The translations under genes and the position numbers were made by a program. Shown here in pieces: positions 23,762-49,016 of a stretch of 64,000 nucleotides of DNA (position 1 is its first letter; every line of letters starts with the position of its first letter). Source of the stretch: a virus (lineage: Duplodnaviria; Caudoviricetes); the IMG/VR virus record IMGVR_UViG_3300025357_000008, positions 1-64,000 of that record. One strand, 5' to 3'. The notes under the pieces were generated by a model that was not told where the DNA came from, ran no database searches, and saw only the letters and a list, made by a program, of their open reading frames with translations.

Positions 23762-23827
23762 AATACCACTCCGGAACCTGGGGGCATTTTCGGTATCCTT
23801 GACAACCTTGCCATTCCGGTGTATAAT
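23762..23827 (+). promoter_or_regulatory. Island promoter P1 (sigma70) with degenerate AATACC...GGGG operator
   Basis: TTGACA 23799-23804, 17 bp spacer, TATAAT 23822-23827. Confidence 0.75.
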
Positions 23828-23857
23828 GGCTCCTTTATAACCAATGAGGTAAATTTT

Positions 23858-24115
23858 ATGCCAAAATCTAAAAGCGAGGTGGTTCCTAGCCTGGTATTGT
23901 CCGAGGCTCTAATGAACCACATTAATACCAGCCAAAGGCTCAAAGGTTCTCCACAGGACTCTGCCGACCGGTATACAATAGGCTACCTGGTCTCCATGAT
24001 AGCCGATTTTATCGAAGCCGAACCAGCGATTGCCGATATGGTTGAAAATAGAATTAAGGTTATTCAATTGAGAATATTAGAGGATAATTTTAAGGGGTTC
24101 CACAATGTACAGTAA
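23858..24115 (+). CDS. Early hypothetical protein
   Basis: GAGGT RBS after P1; the track ORF start at 23732 runs through the promoter. Confidence 0.6.
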   Translation: MPKSKSEVVPSLVLSEALMNHINTSQRLKGSPQDSADRYTIGYLVSMIADFIEAEPAIADMVENRIKVIQLRILEDNFKGFHNVQ

Positions 24116-24221
24116 AACCGAAGAGACAATCTTAAAGGTCCTTTTTATAGTAGGCTACTCAATAGCCATTGGCGTGATTCTATTAGAGACAATGGGATGG
24201 CTAGGGGGTCCTGTGAGATAA
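24105..24221 (+). CDS. 38-aa membrane peptide
   Basis: Hand-translated MYSKTEETILKVLFIVGYSIAIGVILLETMGWLGGPVR; AAGGGG RBS. Confidence 0.45.
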   Translation: MYSKTEETILKVLFIVGYSIAIGVILLETMGWLGGPVR

Positions 24222-24248
24222 TGAGAGTATATTAGAGACCCTCTAAGA

Positions 24249-24433
24249 ACCGAAAACCTTGGAAAACCTCCAAGGTTTTTTTTGGTTCCGAATGGAAAAT
24301 CGGCAACAACGGCCGAAAGTGGTACCGGCAACTATACCAGCGACCACTAGCCCGCTTTTCGGTATCTTGCCGGTTTATCTGTGGATATCCTGTGGACAAT
24401 AAAAAAGCCCCTATACTTTGGGGCTATTCTTTT
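24249..24433. terminator. Terminators between the convergent transcription units
   Basis: aaccttgg-aaaacct-ccaaggtt + T run (~24255-24283); aaaaaagcccc-tatacttt-ggggct (24401-24425). Confidence 0.6.
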
Positions 24434-24454
24434 AGGTTATTCGGTAACCTTTAT

Positions 24455-25237
24455 TTACTCTTCAATTATGCCTACTTGAGTCATTTTAGATAATATACCT
24501 TCCATGCTGTAATTTTCGAAGCCTTGGAAACCGGTGCGGAAGATATCGGCAAGGATTTTCCTTTGTTCGGTAGGCTCTTGGTCCATAAACCATTCTACCT
24601 CATAATCGGTTATTTTGGTAATAATAGTATTCATTTAATCTCCTCAATTGCCAGTACTATACGGCTTATTTTAAAAATCCAATTGGCATATTCGGATGCC
24701 TCTTGAAGGGTGCGGAAGGTTTTGGTATCTACTCGGTACATTATGGGGTTCCTAGGTTATAATACAATTCATTAAAAGGGTGAACGGTAACCATGGCATA
24801 GAATACTTGGCCTAAGGCACCGGAATTAATCTTAGACTGGCACATGGCGGCCTTATTTTTGGTACCGAAAACACCAACGACCTTAAATGGTTTGTCCTGG
24901 GTCAATTTTACATGGACAATGTATATGGATTTTTTATTCATTAAACGGCTCTAATAATACGTTGGAGGGAATGTACGGAATTATCTGCCATTTTGGCAAG
25001 GCTCTGAAGCCCTACGGTTGACATGAAAACCCCAAGGAGAAAACCTACTAAAATTTTAATCATATATTAATCCTTTTTATCAAATTCGGTTACATTGGAA
25101 AACAGGAGGTTTTCCTCATACTGGCATAATTCTTGGATCTCGGCATCGGTCATGGTTTCTAATGATTCGGTAGAATACATGCACATTCTAAGGAAAACCT
25201 CGGCATTGTGTCTCATGGTGGATTTTTCGGTATTCAT
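24455..25237 (-). other. Five coupled small early genes (25067..25237, 24941..25063, 24741..24941, 24631..24741, 24455..24634)
   Basis: Hand-translated; TAATG/ATGA overlaps; downstream of promoter P2. Confidence 0.6.
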
Positions 25238-25273
25238 ATATTTTTTAATCTCTTATTGTCTTAATATGGATCT

Positions 25274-25331
25274 ATTATAACCGAATTCGGTAGAATTGTC
25301 AAGTATTACCCCTCTGGAGTGTAGGGGTATT
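25274..25331 (-). promoter_or_regulatory. Island promoter P2 with AATACCC-N13-GGGTA operator
   Basis: Minus strand reads aatacccctacactccagaggggtaatac-TTGACA-17-TATAAT. Confidence 0.8.
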
Positions 25332-25376
25332 ATTTGAAAACTCAAGTATTCATTTTAGGAATGAATACTTTTATAT

Positions 25377-25640
25377 TCAACAATCAGGATCATAATCTGC
25401 CCATTCGGTAGCCTCTGAAGGCTCATACTCGGCAAATTCCTCATACCGTGATTCCGCATCCTGTTCCATGCGGTACTCGGATTGTGCCCTTACAAGGTTG
25501 GCAAACCTCACAAGGTCGATCCCTTCGGTATAAAAATAACCAGTGGTGGTGTCATAGGTCGCACCTGAACGGATGGCAAATTCCATTAGGTCTTGGTTTT
25601 CTGGATCGGTAATGAATTCCATGGTTTCTCCTTTATTCAT
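25377..25640 (-). CDS. Acidic early protein
   Basis: ORF track; ends EPSEATEWADYDPDC; likely start at 25622 after AAGGAG. Confidence 0.6.
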   Translation of the reverse strand: MNKGETMEFITDPENQDLMEFAIRSGATYDTTTGYFYTEGIDLVRFANLVRAQSEYRMEQDAESRYEEFAEYEPSEATEWADYDPDC

Positions 25641-25977
25641 TAATATGGGAATAATCGTCTAATTCAATTTCCAGGTTTTCCTCATACCGTGATTCCGCAT
25701 CCTGTTCCATGCGGTCTCGGTATTGGGCTCTTTCCATATTCTCAAAATAAGAATCGGAATCCGCTTGGTCGGTAGGATCAATTTCCAGGTTTTCCTCAAA
25801 TAGTTCGGATATATCTCGGTCCTTTAATTCTTGGATCAATTGGTCGTCCGTCATATTGAAATAACCAACAAACCCAAATTCCAGATAGGAATCCAATAGT
25901 TCGGCACCTGAGCCGTGCATAATGTATTCAAAATCGGCGGCGCATAATTCTTGGATGGCTTTTTCTCGGTTGTACAT
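25633..25977 (-). CDS. Very acidic early protein (candidate DNA mimic)
   Basis: 33 D/E versus about 8 K/R in 114 aa. Confidence 0.55.
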   Translation of the reverse strand: MYNREKAIQELCAADFEYIMHGSGAELLDSYLEFGFVGYFNMTDDQLIQELKDRDISELFEENLEIDPTDQADSDSYFENMERAQYRDRMEQDAESRYEENLEIELDDYSHINE

Positions 25978-25996
25978 TTAATTTCCTTTTTTTAAA

Positions 25997-26377
25997 TTAT
26001 ATGGGGCAGACTGAAAATTGGAGAGTATTTTTAGTGGATTCGGAAAGGGCTGATACATTCCATACCTCGGTTTCGGTTGTGAAAAGGTAGGCGTATTCAC
26101 AACCGCACTGGTAATAATAGTCGGTAAATTCCTCTATGGAATTAAATTCTCGAAAATCATTACCGGCACCGTGGCTCTCATTGTAGAATTTACATTCCTC
26201 AAGGGTAGGGGCAATGACGGACAGGTCGCCTCTGGCAATAAGGGCAATGGCATGGGACAAGGAATTGTGGTACTCGGTAAGGTGCCTACCCATATGGGCA
26301 GGATAACCGTCCCAATGAGCATATATTGCCACAATTTTATTACCACATTTTACACCTATACAGGATCTGGTTGCCAT
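25997..26377 (-). CDS. Conserved phage protein (MATRS...YxHWDGYP family)
   Basis: IYAHWDGYP, GDLS, EYAYLF motifs; own promoter P3. Confidence 0.65.
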   Translation of the reverse strand: MATRSCIGVKCGNKIVAIYAHWDGYPAHMGRHLTEYHNSLSHAIALIARGDLSVIAPTLEECKFYNESHGAGNDFREFNSIEEFTDYYYQCGCEYAYLFTTETEVWNVSALSESTKNTLQFSVCPI

Positions 26378-26403
26378 ATTCTTTTCCTCTCAAATAAAAT
26401 TAA

Positions 26404-26461
26404 ATTATAACCTAAAACGGTAAAATTGTCAAGGAATACCCCTACACTTGGCAAGGGTATT
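26404..26461 (-). promoter_or_regulatory. Island promoter P3 with operator
   Basis: aatacccttgccaagtgtaggggtattcc-TTGACA-17-TATAAT. Confidence 0.85.
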
Positions 26462-26473
26462 AATATCACAATT

Positions 26474-26884
26474 TTAAACCATAAAAATGTAAGGCTTATC
26501 CCATGATCCGATATCTAAGTCGGTATAATAAGCGGTATCAAAATAATCAATTTGGGCATCGGAATTATCATACCAGCCGGCAGATTTTAGGGCGGCCATA
26601 ATTTTGGTAATGGTCTCTAATGCTTTGCCGGTGAAGGCATTTTGGTAGTGGTATGGGTTCACTTGGATATAACGGTCGGCTATCGTACCTCTACCGGATG
26701 AAAGGTAGGAGGTCTTGGCCGTCTCATTATAATTGGTAATAAAATCAATCGGTGCGGATTTTATTGTCATGGCAATGGTCATATGGCTACGGACTTTTAA
26801 GGAGTATTTGATGCCTAAAGGCTTGCAAATTTTCTTAAGGTTCTCATTAATGATTTTTTTACGCTCTTGGTTCATATATGCCAT
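26474..26884 (-). CDS. Conserved phage protein, possibly LPD29-like
   Basis: DNSDAQIDYFDTAYY...IGSWDKPY motif; own promoter P4. Confidence 0.5.
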   Translation of the reverse strand: MAYMNQERKKIINENLKKICKPLGIKYSLKVRSHMTIAMTIKSAPIDFITNYNETAKTSYLSSGRGTIADRYIQVNPYHYQNAFTGKALETITKIMAALKSAGWYDNSDAQIDYFDTAYYTDLDIGSWDKPYIFMV

Positions 26885-26914
26885 TTTGGTTTCCTTTCAA
26901 ATTTTGATGGATCA

Positions 26915-26972
26915 ATTATAACGGTTTTCGGTAAGATTGTCAAGGAATACCCCTACGGAATGCAAGGGTATT
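26915..26972 (-). promoter_or_regulatory. Island promoter P4 with operator
   Basis: aatacccttgcattccgtaggggtattcc-TTGACA-17-TATAAT. Confidence 0.85.
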
Positions 26973-26979
26973 AATTTGA

Positions 26980-27171
26980 CTACCCTACTAAGGACTGGAG
27001 GTACTCGGTTAGCCCCAATTCGGATTCCATGGCACTTATGAGGCTGGCACCGCTGGTGATATAATATTCTCCGGCTCTTTCCATGAGGTATTGAGCATAA
27101 CCCTCCTCAATACCGTATTCCACTTCCTCATATGCCATAATGGCACGTTTCAGGGTTTTAAATTTTAGCAT
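26980..27171 (-). CDS. Small acidic early protein
   Basis: AAGGA RBS; own promoter P5. Confidence 0.6.
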   Translation of the reverse strand: MLKFKTLKRAIMAYEEVEYGIEEGYAQYLMERAGEYYITSGASLISAMESELGLTEYLQSLVG

Positions 27172-27204
27172 TTTATTTCCTTTGTTTTCTTAAATTATGG
27201 CTCT

Positions 27205-27262
27205 ATTATAGCCTACAATTGCCGAATTGTCAACCAGTACCCCCACGGAATGGTCGGGTATT
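27205..27262 (-). promoter_or_regulatory. Island promoter P5 with operator
   Basis: aatacccgaccattccgtgggggtactgg-TTGACA-17-TATAAT. Confidence 0.8.
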
Positions 27263-27379
27263 AAAATTAATACTAAGGTTCGGCACGCCGGGGGATTTTT
27301 TAATACTTTTGTTTCTTAAATTTACCGCAAACCAAAGTACTACATTTTATGGCATTTTGAATACTCAGGTTTGCAGGAA

Positions 27380-27437
27380 AATACCCTAGTAAATTGTAGG
27401 GGTATGCCTTGACAATTCGGCAATTATGGTATACAAT
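27380..27437 (+). promoter_or_regulatory. Island promoter P6 with operator (divergent from P5)
   Basis: aataccctagtaaattgtaggggtatgcc-TTGACA-17-TACAAT. Confidence 0.8.
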
Positions 27438-27472
27438 AGAGCCTTATTAGATTAAAAGTGAAAGGAAAAACA

Positions 27473-27733
27473 ATGGCAAAATCATTAATTAAGGGAGTAA
27501 AAAACTCCCAATGGATCCGTGTTATCATGGAAGGCCAGTACCAAGTGGATGTACAGGTCGGAAAATTAGATACCATTAGACCCCTAGCCCACCGGCTAGC
27601 CGTATGGTCAGGATTAGAGGACCTTGTCCGTAAAAACCAATTGAACCCTGGCAATGGTGGCGGCCAGTCCTCATATTTTTATGATGACCAATTTAACCGC
27701 CATCCATACCAAGTCCAATTTTACATTCTATAA
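27473..27733 (+). CDS. Early hypothetical protein
   Basis: AAGGA RBS before ATG 27473. Confidence 0.6.
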   Translation: MAKSLIKGVKNSQWIRVIMEGQYQVDVQVGKLDTIRPLAHRLAVWSGLEDLVRKNQLNPGNGGGQSSYFYDDQFNRHPYQVQFYIL

Positions 27734-27745
27734 AATTGTGATATT

Positions 27746-27803
27746 AATACCCTTCCATTCCGTAGGGGTATTCCTTGACAATTTTACCAGTTTAGGATAT
27801 AAT
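27746..27803 (+). promoter_or_regulatory. Island promoter P7 with operator
   Basis: aatacccttccattccgtaggggtattcc-TTGACA-17-TATAAT. Confidence 0.85.
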
Positions 27804-27837: not shown

Positions 27838-28503
27838 ATGCCAAAATTAAAACCAACCGTCCGCCTTTCCAAGGTTTCAAAATTAGACGGTAACCTATCA
27901 TGGTCCCTCCAAGCCTTAGATACCTGCCCAGGTTCTAAGGATGCCAATGGCGACCTAGTTCCTGCCTGTTCCGGTTGCTATGCTACCGACGGACTTTACC
28001 ATATGCCTACCGTTATGGAACCACGTATTTTCAACCAGCAGGACTGGAAACGTGATGGGTGGGTTGCCGATATGATCCAAGCCCTTGCCAAGTCCAAGCA
28101 TTTCCGCTGGTTTGATTCCGGGGATGCCTATGCACTAGAATTGTGCGAGAAAATTTACCAGGTTATGGCAGGTACTCCTAACACCAAGCATTGGTTACCA
28201 ACCCGCATGGGTAAATTTTTCAAATTCCAGGCTATACTTGCCAAAATGCAGGCATTGCCTAATGTAATGGTCCGATTCTCCAGTGATTCTATTATGGGTG
28301 AATTTACACCAGGTGTCCACGGTTCCACAATTGTGAACGATCCTACCGTGGTTCCAGAAGGTGCTACCCTTTGCCGTGCATATGAGAATGCCGGCAAGTG
28401 TTCCGGTTGCCGTGCGTGTTGGGATAAGGAGGTTGCCGTTATAGCCTACCCAACCCATGGCCGCAAAATGGCGAAGGTTATCCGCATTGCCCTAGCCGCT
28501 TAA
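27838..28503 (+). CDS. GP88-family Cys-rich (radical-SAM-like/Fe-S) protein
   Basis: TCPG...ACSGCYA, FRWFDSGD, HWLPTR, C...CSGCRACW. Confidence 0.75.
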   Translation: MPKLKPTVRLSKVSKLDGNLSWSLQALDTCPGSKDANGDLVPACSGCYATDGLYHMPTVMEPRIFNQQDWKRDGWVADMIQALAKSKHFRWFDSGDAYALELCEKIYQVMAGTPNTKHWLPTRMGKFFKFQAILAKMQALPNVMVRFSSDSIMGEFTPGVHGSTIVNDPTVVPEGATLCRAYENAGKCSGCRACWDKEVAVIAYPTHGRKMAKVIRIALAA

Positions 28504-28573
28504 ACTAAAGTATTCAAAAAGCCCCGGCGCCTCGGGGTAATACTTTTTTCTTATACCGTATACTTTCCGTGTA

Positions 28574-28685
28574 CTGTATAAAAAAACAGTAAAACTTTTT
28601 TCTTACTGTATGAAATTGCAGTACAACTTTTGTAGTACTGTATAAATTTACAGTAAAACTTTTTTCTTACTGTATAAAAACCCTG
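28574..28685. promoter_or_regulatory. Array of four LexA/SOS boxes at 32-bp period
   Basis: CTGTATAAAAAAACAG (28574), CTGTATGAAATTGCAG (28606), CTGTATAAATTTACAG (28638), CTGTATAAAAACCCTG (28670). Confidence 0.8.
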
Positions 28686-28711
28686 TAACACTTTTTTACT
28701 AAGGAGCCTTT

Positions 28712-28867
28712 ATGAATACTAATTCAGTAACCGTCACACCAGTCCCTTGGGCTCTTATGTGGAACCACCTCATGCGTGGCAAGACCTCACCACTTTCCGT
28801 ACAGTTTGTCCATTCCTATGTTCAAACCCTTGGCAAAGTGACCACGAGCCATGACCCTTCCAAGTAG
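28712..28867 (+). CDS. 51-aa hypothetical protein downstream of the SOS-box array
   Basis: AAGGAG at 28701; MNTNSVTVTPVPWALMWNHLMRGKTSPLSVQFVHSYVQTLGKVTTSHDPSK. Confidence 0.5.
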   Translation: MNTNSVTVTPVPWALMWNHLMRGKTSPLSVQFVHSYVQTLGKVTTSHDPSK

Positions 28868-28975
28868 GACGAGGTAGGACGAGGTGAATAAATTGAGTGT
28901 TGTTTTCCGGCAACATTCACTTGATTTTCTTCAGGAAATGCTTTATAATCAATCTTTTAAATGACGAGGTAAATT

Positions 28976-29851
28976 ATGTCAGACATCAAACAGGTAAACG
29001 GTATGTTCCAAACTGTAATCAACGGCAAGACCGTGAGACGTACTAAAATGTCCAGTCTACAATATGCTATCCGCAAAGCAGGTGGCACTACAGGTAGCAC
29101 CGAGCAAGTCGAGGTAAAAGAATCCAGATTTTCAATCAACGAGCGTTTCGGTTTCCTATCCGATATGGTGACAATGTTAGCACGAGGTGACCAAGCCTCT
29201 GTGGTTGTAACAGGTCCTGGCGGTCTAGGTAAGTCACATACCGTTACCAGTGCCCTAGTTAAAACAGGTTTCACCGATACATCCACACTTGAGGAGGGTA
29301 GTGTAGTCAATAAAGAAAAAGCCTTTAATGTAATCAAAGGTTATTCAACACCTAAAGGTCTATACCGTACATTGTATGAGAACCGAGACGGTGTTGTGGT
29401 ATTTGATGATTGTGATTCCGTGTTAAAAGATCCAGTATCCGTTAACCTGTTAAAAGCGGCACTTGATTCCTATGACCGCCGCATTATTTCATGGAGAGCA
29501 GATTTTAGAGACGAGGAATTGCCTAATTCATTCGAATTTAAAGGTCGTGTTGTGTTTATTTCCAACATGGATTCTGGCAAACTAGACCAAGCCATTGTGA
29601 CGAGGTCCCTTGCCGTTGACCTGTCTATGACCAACAAACAAAAGGTTGAGCGTATGCAACACCTTTGCAAGTCTAAAGAGTTTATGAGTGAGTACGCACA
29701 AAATCTAAAAGATGATGCCATGGCATTAATCGAATCATTACAGGACGAGGTAAAAGAATTGAGCCTTCGTACTCTCATTCAAGTTACCAAAATCCGTAAG
29801 AGTGCCGGTGCAAACTGGAAAGAATTAGCAGAGTATGCAATTTGTGGGTAA
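28976..29851 (+). CDS. AAA+/P-loop ATPase
   Basis: Walker A GPGGLGKS, Walker B VVVFDDCD, LLKAALD, VFISN, R-finger; TGTTG-N8-CAACA promoter at 28898-28949. Confidence 0.85.
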   Translation: MSDIKQVNGMFQTVINGKTVRRTKMSSLQYAIRKAGGTTGSTEQVEVKESRFSINERFGFLSDMVTMLARGDQASVVVTGPGGLGKSHTVTSALVKTGFTDTSTLEEGSVVNKEKAFNVIKGYSTPKGLYRTLYENRDGVVVFDDCDSVLKDPVSVNLLKAALDSYDRRIISWRADFRDEELPNSFEFKGRVVFISNMDSGKLDQAIVTRSLAVDLSMTNKQKVERMQHLCKSKEFMSEYAQNLKDDAMALIESLQDEVKELSLRTLIQVTKIRKSAGANWKELAEYAICG

Positions 29852-48567: not shown

Positions 48568-48699
48568 ATGAAAACGAACAAATTAATCTTTAAGCTAAAC
48601 AAAGCAGAGTTCAAGCATCAAAAACGTAAAGCTAAGAAACTGTGGCTTAAGATTTTAAGAAAGTCATTTAAGAGAAAGCAAACGCAATCTGTTAGATGA
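48568..48699 (+). CDS. 43-aa highly basic peptide upstream of tmRNA
   Basis: Hand-translated MKTNKLIFKLNKAEFKHQKRKAKKLWLKILRKSFKRKQTQSVR. Confidence 0.4.
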   Translation: MKTNKLIFKLNKAEFKHQKRKAKKLWLKILRKSFKRKQTQSVR

Positions 48700-48702
48700 T
48701 TA

Positions 48703-48992
48703 TGGTTGTATGAAGTAAATCAAAAGGTGCTCTGGACGGGAGTTCGAATCTCCCCACCTCCACCAAAAGCATACTGTGAGTCGGCTTGCTGATAAACTTT
48801 AAGTAGAGATAGTATGCTTTTGATGGGGGTGCACTTGGTTTCGACAGGGTAAATAGTAGAGGCACAGACAACTCGTCAGGAGTAGACGTAAAAAGCAAAA
48901 TTTAATAACTGCAAACGATGAGTTATTCGCATTAGCCGCCTAAACGTGGCTTAGGGTTTCGGTTAGTTTCCTCGTAACAGAATAACTAACCA
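48703..48992 (+). ncRNA. ssrA: Circularly permuted two-piece tmRNA; tag peptide ANDELFALAA
   Basis: T-arm and acceptor end GGGAGTTCGAATCTCCCCACCTCCACCA (ends 48765) precedes the 5' piece GGGGGTG...GGTTTCGAC (starts 48825); G3:U70 pair; resume codon GCA at 48911, stop 48941-48943; outer ends approximate. Confidence 0.93.
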
Positions 48993-49016
48993 ATTTTTTT
49001 AACTTAAGGAGAAAAG

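Follow-up and report, generated by a model that had tools for sequence, protein, structure and literature searches.

In Escherichia coli, several high-affinity SOS boxes of one 20-bp motif class lie side by side in the recN, lexA and colicin operons, where two or three boxes overlap the -35 and -10 elements of a sigma-70 promoter, those of the colicin operons being two overlapping boxes. The locus described here has boxes of the same class, but it differs from these operons in having three to at least five or six boxes, a 32-bp period, a conserved linker and no promoter, and in lying in a lytic phage. The Bacillus phage GIL01 has a promoter, P1, with LexA boxes, and a co-repressor, gp7 (PMC4551915; PMC6182141). 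GIL01 resembles the present phage in that no classical repressor is encoded and host LexA is (or, in the present case, would be) borrowed via SOS boxes in the phage DNA; it is however temperate, with LexA holding lysogeny at the promoter, whereas the present phage is T4-like, lacks lysogeny genes and carries its boxes in tandem and without a promoter. The lytic phage phi29 reads the state of its host through Spo0A boxes at its promoters and origins. The likeness lies in a strictly lytic life style combined with multiple sites for a global regulator of the host; the regulator, the host and the arrangement are different, as the phi29 sites do not form a phased tandem array.

Two further kinds of element resemble the array in layout. 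The hyperplastic regions of T4-type phages reportedly contain promoter-early stem-loop (PeSL) cassettes (work said to be that of Arbiol et al. in 2010); the array lies in the same kind of genome island, but its units lack the promoter half and are in tandem, not dispersed. In the F sopC centromere and in iteron arrays, tandem repeats each hold an inverted repeat, and the present array is likewise made of helically phased, tandem palindromic units in variable copy number. It differs from them in that no cognate binder family (ParB, Rep or other) was found beside it by family searches, and in that its palindrome is an SOS box. Our literature searches gave no account of an SOS-box array in a lytic phage, T4-like or otherwise.

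The window, i.e. the whole stretch of DNA that was analysed, is the first 64 kb of a 170,261-bp IMG/VR record of about 37% GC. The genome encodes the Gp23 major capsid protein (PF07068, E 5.5e-142), which is 62–65% identical to that of Stenotrophomonas phage DLP6, Pelagibacter phage Mosig, Methylophilales phage Melnitz and cyanomyophages. The genome gave no match to the tyrosine integrase family PF00589, and no LexA DNA-binding or S24 peptidase domain was found in it. A phage-encoded LexA was rejected as a candidate, the single weak match to a LexA domain being out of frame inside a gp41-like helicase gene. With Gp23, no integrase and no LexA of its own, this is indeed, as initially proposed, a lytic T4-like phage (Straboviridae-type).

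About 40 near-consensus TTGACA-N17-TATAAT promoters were found in the phage, a set that fits a sigma-70 of the proteobacterial type and a proteobacterial host. A two-piece (circularly permuted) tmRNA with the tag ANDELFALAA is present in the window at 48653-49001; it scored 140.5 bits with the Rfam model beta_tmRNA (cut-off 84) and 135 bits with tmRNA_permuted. From this beta-type tmRNA we infer that the host is probably a betaproteobacterium; Betaproteobacteria use an SOS box of the E. coli type. The tmRNA type of a phage can differ from that of its host, as in Melnitz (PMC9004378). A degenerate tmRNA-tag scan of GTDB genomes returned one 1.8-kb contig in the bin of a Bacteroidetes MAG; it has only the tmRNA region in common with the phage and is most likely a fragment of a related phage that contaminates the MAG. 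For the host, a megablast search against phage records gave no match. Close variants of the phage were present in JGI samples, which from their sample codes we take to be a bog-lake series, and in an ENA series named GROS21.

Reading of the sequence revealed four head-to-tail units of 32 bp in the window, each composed of a 20-bp box and a 12-bp linker (Table 1), and Tandem Repeats Finder reported 28572-28697 with a period of 32, 3.9 copies and a score of 154. The CTG-N10-CAG cores begin at 28574, 28606, 28638 and 28670, as given in the preliminary description, and its grading of the boxes (two perfect, one near-perfect, one degenerate) agrees with the sequence, in which two boxes are perfect, one has a GCAG right arm and one retains only its left half. 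Boxes 1–3 are of the form TACTGTAT-N7-CAGTA and the fourth is a half-site, one base away from the CCCAG form of lineages L112 and L115. The right arm of box 2 is a perfect ACAG in alleles L094 and L098, and the position of the decayed unit 0 is occupied by a perfect box in lineage L111. The linker of unit 0 is fused to the T-run of a terminator-like hairpin that ends the upstream GP88-family gene. Downstream, the AAGGAG ribosome-binding site (RBS) and the 51-aa open reading frame at 28712-28867, hereafter ORF51, directly follow the array, as reported.

Table 1. Features of the array region (coordinates in the window)
Feature	Position	Strand	Remarks
GP88-family gene (221 aa), upstream	27838..28503	+	Pfam PF17338, E 2.6e-24
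GC-rich hairpin and T-run, terminator-like	28521..28549	+	Tail AATACTTTTTT, of the same form as the array linkers
Decayed unit 0	28537..28571	+	Intact linker, then TACCGTATACTTTCCGTG; 3-bp indel
Box 1, TACTGTATAAAAAAACAGTA	28572..28591	.	Perfect CTGT-N8-ACAG
Box 2, TACTGTATGAAATTGCAGTA	28604..28623	.	Right arm GCAG
Box 3, TACTGTATAAATTTACAGTA	28636..28655	.	Perfect CTGT-N8-ACAG
Box 4, TACTGTATAAAAACCCTGTA	28668..28687	.	Left half-site only
Span with four 12-bp linkers, A(A/C)AACTTTT(T/G)T..	28592..28699	+	Interleaved with boxes 2-4
Individual linkers	28592-28603, 28624-28635, 28656-28667, 28688-28699	+	
RBS AAGGAG	28701..28706	+	5 nt before the ORF51 ATG
ORF51, orphan gene	28712..28867	+	51 aa (47-53 aa in relatives)
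10-bp tandem repeat GTAGGACGAG, 2.2 copies	28864..28885	+	Starts at the ORF51 stop codon
Stem-loop TGAGTGTTGTT..GGCAACATTCA, then promoter TTGATT-17-TATAAT of the next gene	28894..28949	+	
P-loop ATPase, similar to T4 nrdC.10	28976..29851	+	phrog_1250, E 8.9e-61

The pattern TACTGTAT-N7-CAGTA with up to two mismatches occurs 10 times in the window compared with 2.08 expected, and none of 100 shuffled sequences reached 10 matches. With at most one mismatch, in the whole 170,261-bp genome, it occurs only in the array and at one half-site-like match at 68291. The four boxes are copies of a single tandem unit and therefore represent one event, amplified later, and not four independent ones. Elsewhere in the 170-kb genome the words of the array unit are neither enriched nor dispersed; for lack of such enrichment we rejected the idea that they belong to a dispersed family of promoters or repeats.

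Boxes 1–3 match the 20-mer consensus TACTGTATATATATACAGTA of the Beta- and Gammaproteobacterial SOS box (core CTGT-N8-ACAG with an AT-rich spacer) at 17–18 of 20 positions. One base separates box 1 from the umuD and sbmC operators of E. coli, and two bases separate box 3 from the istR/tisB operator. The pattern TACTGTAT-N7-CAGTA, allowing one mismatch, gave 19 strand-wise matches (about 14 sites) in E. coli K-12, compared with three for the reversed control. These matches are mostly SOS operators: recA, umuD, sbmC and istR/tisB were checked against the annotation, and the matches at 1020942, at 2751727 and 2751749 (two boxes 22 bp apart) and at 1930765 are presumably those of sulA, recN and yebG, respectively. 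In IMG/VR, the pattern TACTGTAT-N(0-8)-ATACAGTA was considered over the first 120 loci listed (121 matches); among these listed matches, 98 of 121 have the 20-bp LexA spacing and none the 18-bp (N6) spacing. This prevalence of the LexA spacing suggests that, in viral DNA generally, the palindrome serves as a LexA site, and the array boxes share this very geometry. The proposed match to the LexA operator of Beta- and Gammaproteobacteria thus holds at the level of the consensus, including the TA flanks, AT at positions 7-8 and the N8 spacing. Against the LexA reading, several units lack the right arm (box 4 of the window, and units in L113, L115 and L112), and any modification of the phage DNA could block LexA contacts.

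Arrays of strong SOS-type boxes, two to about 10 in number and either in tandem or overlapping, are present in several unrelated IMG/VR contigs; among the matches listed, these contigs are L066/L078, L068, L067, L076, L069/L070/L072, L065/L071/L074 and L073. The arrays lie 0.2–3 kb from a terminase large-subunit gene in L065, L066, L069, L073 and L076, while that of L067 is at the end of a 347-kb contig and that of L068 (about 10 boxes with a 16–17-bp period) is also at a contig end. Tandem palindromes AATGAGAATCATT (AATGA-N3-TCATT) adjoin the SOS-box arrays in L076 (4570-4690 and 4745-4800), L070 and L067. We take AATGA-N3-TCATT to be the core of the Fur box; such Fur-box-like palindromes beside SOS-box arrays hint that operators for several host regulators are crowded together in these regions.

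The upstream GP88-family gene has its own sigma-70 promoter near 27775, and the terminator-like hairpin that follows the gene is a different one in the twin lineage L079, where the site is 43% divergent and has been swapped. In lineage L112 (336-430) the repeat GTAGGACGAG forms part of a longer unit of about 38–39 bp that is present in three copies, and the repeat is similar to GACGAGGTAAAT, the ribosome-binding region of early genes nearby. A tblastn search with the downstream ATPase matched nrdC.10 of CC31 and others, and in relatives the ATPase gene is preceded by the same hairpin-plus-promoter layout as that at 28894-28949. This element has the stem-loop followed by a sigma-70 early promoter that characterizes a PeSL cassette, and it shares its layout with elements at 23.8–27.8 kb, within an island (23.7–30 kb) rich in such cassettes. 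Two classes of stem-loop-plus-early-promoter cassette were distinguished, one of the form TAATACCC-N11-GGGGTATT directly ahead of TTGACA (a divergent island has seven copies), the other with TGTTG-N8-CAACA ahead of TTGACA-N17-TA.AAT. Taken together they occur in the window at 23799-27775, 28898, 33967, 35208 and 36922, and in the genome at 145009 and 145961; the second class is found upstream of the ATPase gene in relatives and is in tandem in L020-L022.

A sigma-70 promoter scan of 28537-28711 detected none in the array or overlapping the boxes. Real SOS boxes usually overlap a promoter; those of the array neither overlap nor abut the promoter of a regulated gene, and the units, being devoid of a promoter, do not have the make-up of PeSL cassettes. 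T4-type late promoters were rejected as well: the late-promoter word TATAAATA has 13 copies genome-wide but none within the array, where similar words vary from allele to allele. As to intrinsic terminators, only the hairpin at 28521-28549 qualifies, and the array units do not. Their stems consist of 6–7 AT-rich bp with loops of 6–8 nt and a T-run starting 4 nt past the stem; being weak and too far from the T-run, they would be poor terminators.

Searches of 5.8 and 1.84 billion proteins gave no homologue of ORF51 outside its own cluster, and it had no match in Pfam, PHROGs or PDB sequences. Three diverged lineages (the window, L111 and L112) keep its frame with a dN/dS of 0.38–0.43 at a dS of 0.40–0.57, and it is therefore a real gene. 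The protein is small and basic. An AF2 model of low confidence (pLDDT 54.5) predicted two helices after an extended N-terminus and no strand; a ribbon-helix-helix fold was unsupported, a proline being found in L112 in the middle of the putative strand.

The array-RBS-ORF51 module is kept in the same three lineages (dS 0.40–0.57), and the array is placed directly before the ORF51 RBS in every lineage seen. The joint inheritance of the array and the small open reading frame supports the proposed tie between them. The preliminary description proposed a search of the syntenic site in related phages, and this gave no array: it was absent from 16 loci in which the ATPase is 51–72% identical, where the site holds just a GTTGT..ACAAC stem-loop and a sigma-70 promoter, and eight GP88 loci that were searched lacked it too. 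The complete relatives G001-G003 had no boxes above the reversed-pattern control, and no ORF51. Natural alleles comprise three units (L087 group), four units (the window, L079 and L094 types), four perfect CTGT-N8-ACAG boxes with an exact 32-bp period (L111), and at least five or six units (L112 and L115, in which the contigs end inside the array). The 32-bp period, first described as exact, is so in the window and in L111; elsewhere one spacing of 33 bp (L079-type) and partial units (L112) depart from it.

Between lineages, the left arm TACTGTAT showed 0 differences out of 78 and the right arm CAGTA 3 out of 78, whereas drift is seen at box positions 9-15. The consensus of the unit differs at 2/32 and 5/32 positions, compared with 18% and 31% at ATPase fourfold sites (P 0.058 and 0.036); these statistics are modest, suggestive but not strong. 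In the per-position table the linker AACTTTT.T is as invariant as the box arms, which is more than LexA binding alone explains and counts against the reading of the array as a LexA operator. In close variants, divergence over the array, ORF51 and the spacer that follows is about 3%, compared with 13–19% at fourfold sites of the flanking genes, a low value that fits either constraint at the sequence level or a recent cassette exchange. The close alleles have about seven variable sites, too few to test for sparing of the arms.

Related elements were found in two other kinds of contig. In L024, whose GP88 protein is 70% identical, a single box preceded by a 13-bp partial duplicate is present at 1797-1830 on the minus strand; the interior and 3' flank of this box agree in 23 of 24 bases with those of window box 2 in its L094-type allele, a likeness which indicates that the box travels from phage to phage as one unit. 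It lies about 25–45 nt downstream of a sigma-70-like promoter (TTGTCG-N17-TATAAT), and spans the start codon of a small gene other than ORF51, which encodes an acidic protein of 53 aa (MKTLYEITVKL...); this position is roadblock-like. No ORF51 was found in the 71-kb L024 fragment, which is 42% complete. In L116 (1990-2130) and L118, which represent a different phage with a distant GP88/DUF7227-like gene, the linker ACTTTTTCAC occurs as in the array, between three CTGT-N6-ACAG palindromes; binding of canonical LexA is not expected at this spacing. The L116/L118 element stands beside other short repeats, CAGGCCAAAATCAGGCC and GC-rich CAGC/CAGG runs.

The presence of a LexA-type array is confirmed by these analyses, and LexA is a fairly probable binder of it. 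In the reading that we favour, which is put forward tentatively as possible rather than probable, host LexA would bind the array boxes as SOS operators of the E. coli type and the array would act in cis on the ORF51 module. LexA bound in tandem would block read-through transcripts that start at the early promoter near 27775 and get past a suboptimal terminator, so that ORF51 would be made only upon LexA cleavage (host SOS) or once replicating phage DNA outnumbers LexA. Since the array contains no promoter, any gating would be a roadblock on read-through and not the action of a classical operator; its position between the terminator-like hairpin and the ORF51 RBS makes a roadblock the most likely mechanism. 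The same quality of the boxes would equally serve a LexA sponge, in which amplified genomes, with high-affinity operators numbering in the hundreds, would soak up free LexA in trans and shift the host SOS response, the linkage to ORF51 being incidental. Such a sponge would account for an array that has no promoter to regulate, and for a copy number that ranges from three to at least five or six, which is dosage-like, as expected of a decoy, and beyond the need of a switch. An E. coli cell contains of the order of 1,000 LexA molecules, and 100–200 genomes with 3–8 boxes each would be about equivalent to the LexA pool. However, three to four sites per genome make a small decoy, the constant placement of the array directly before the ORF51 RBS points to a role in cis, and the complete relatives G001-G003 are devoid of any such boxes. 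Furthermore, T4-type phages generally shut down host transcription, under which derepression of the host SOS genes may be pointless. We regard the sponge as unlikely, and an expandable decoy array, in which amplification would tune the amount of LexA removed per genome and thereby set the host SOS response or time delayed-early genes, as quite unlikely.

A binder encoded by the phage itself, with ORF51 possibly regulating its own synthesis, would make the likeness to SOS boxes coincidental and due to one palindromic half-site. The strict co-occurrence of the array and ORF51, both missing from G001-G003, would then be expected; the conserved linker suggests contacts outside the LexA footprint, and L116/L118 keep the arms and the linker at the N6 spacing, as if for another reader. 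In addition, the palindrome amounts to about 6–8 independent positions, for which a chance look-alike is not absurd in about 250,000 scanned windows, and a small basic protein with two predicted helices is compatible with a small DNA binder. We nevertheless consider this explanation somewhat unlikely: ORF51 has no detectable relative by family or structure and its model is poor, the L112 proline argues against a ribbon-helix-helix, L024 has a box with no ORF51 found in its partial sequence, and the match to the SOS box, beyond the core, takes in the TA flanks and positions 7-8 as well as the exact N8 spacing. In another view the array is a structural or recombinational repeat with no dedicated binder, made of copied terminator-tail modules or acting as a cassette boundary or an origin-like element. 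Each unit does mimic the layout of the preceding terminator (hairpin, AA.ACTTTTTT, CTTA), stem-loop-plus-promoter cassettes abound in the surrounding island, whole units have been gained or lost and others duplicated in part, ORF51 is flanked by a second tandem repeat, and the region folds as RNA with a z of -6.1. Yet the stems are weak and AT-rich with the T-run 4 nt away, the units pair with each other in the minimum-energy fold and not as unit hairpins, the array has no match in Rfam even with E values of up to 10 allowed, and GC skew shows no inflection at its position. SOS-consensus arms at the LexA spacing, kept while the loops drift, would be left unexplained by this view, which we hold to be quite unlikely.

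The SOS boxes of mobile elements have been described chiefly as switches for lysogeny or transfer. In the present case they make up an array that is promoter-less, helically phased with three turns per unit and polymorphic in copy number, in a strictly lytic T4-type phage, and that is inherited with an orphan gene. For an abundant uncultured bog-lake phage, the type of box is a further, independent hint that the host is a Beta- or Gammaproteobacterium. The natural alleles, with three units, four units, four perfect boxes and at least five or six units, constitute a ready series for dose effects. If the decoy reading were true, the multi-box arrays of unrelated uncultured phages, some of which lie by Fur-box-like repeats, would represent a general class of sponges by which phages titrate host transcription factors. 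If LexA binds the array, lytic phages too would read or manipulate the DNA-damage state of their host, via roadblocks or by repressor titration.
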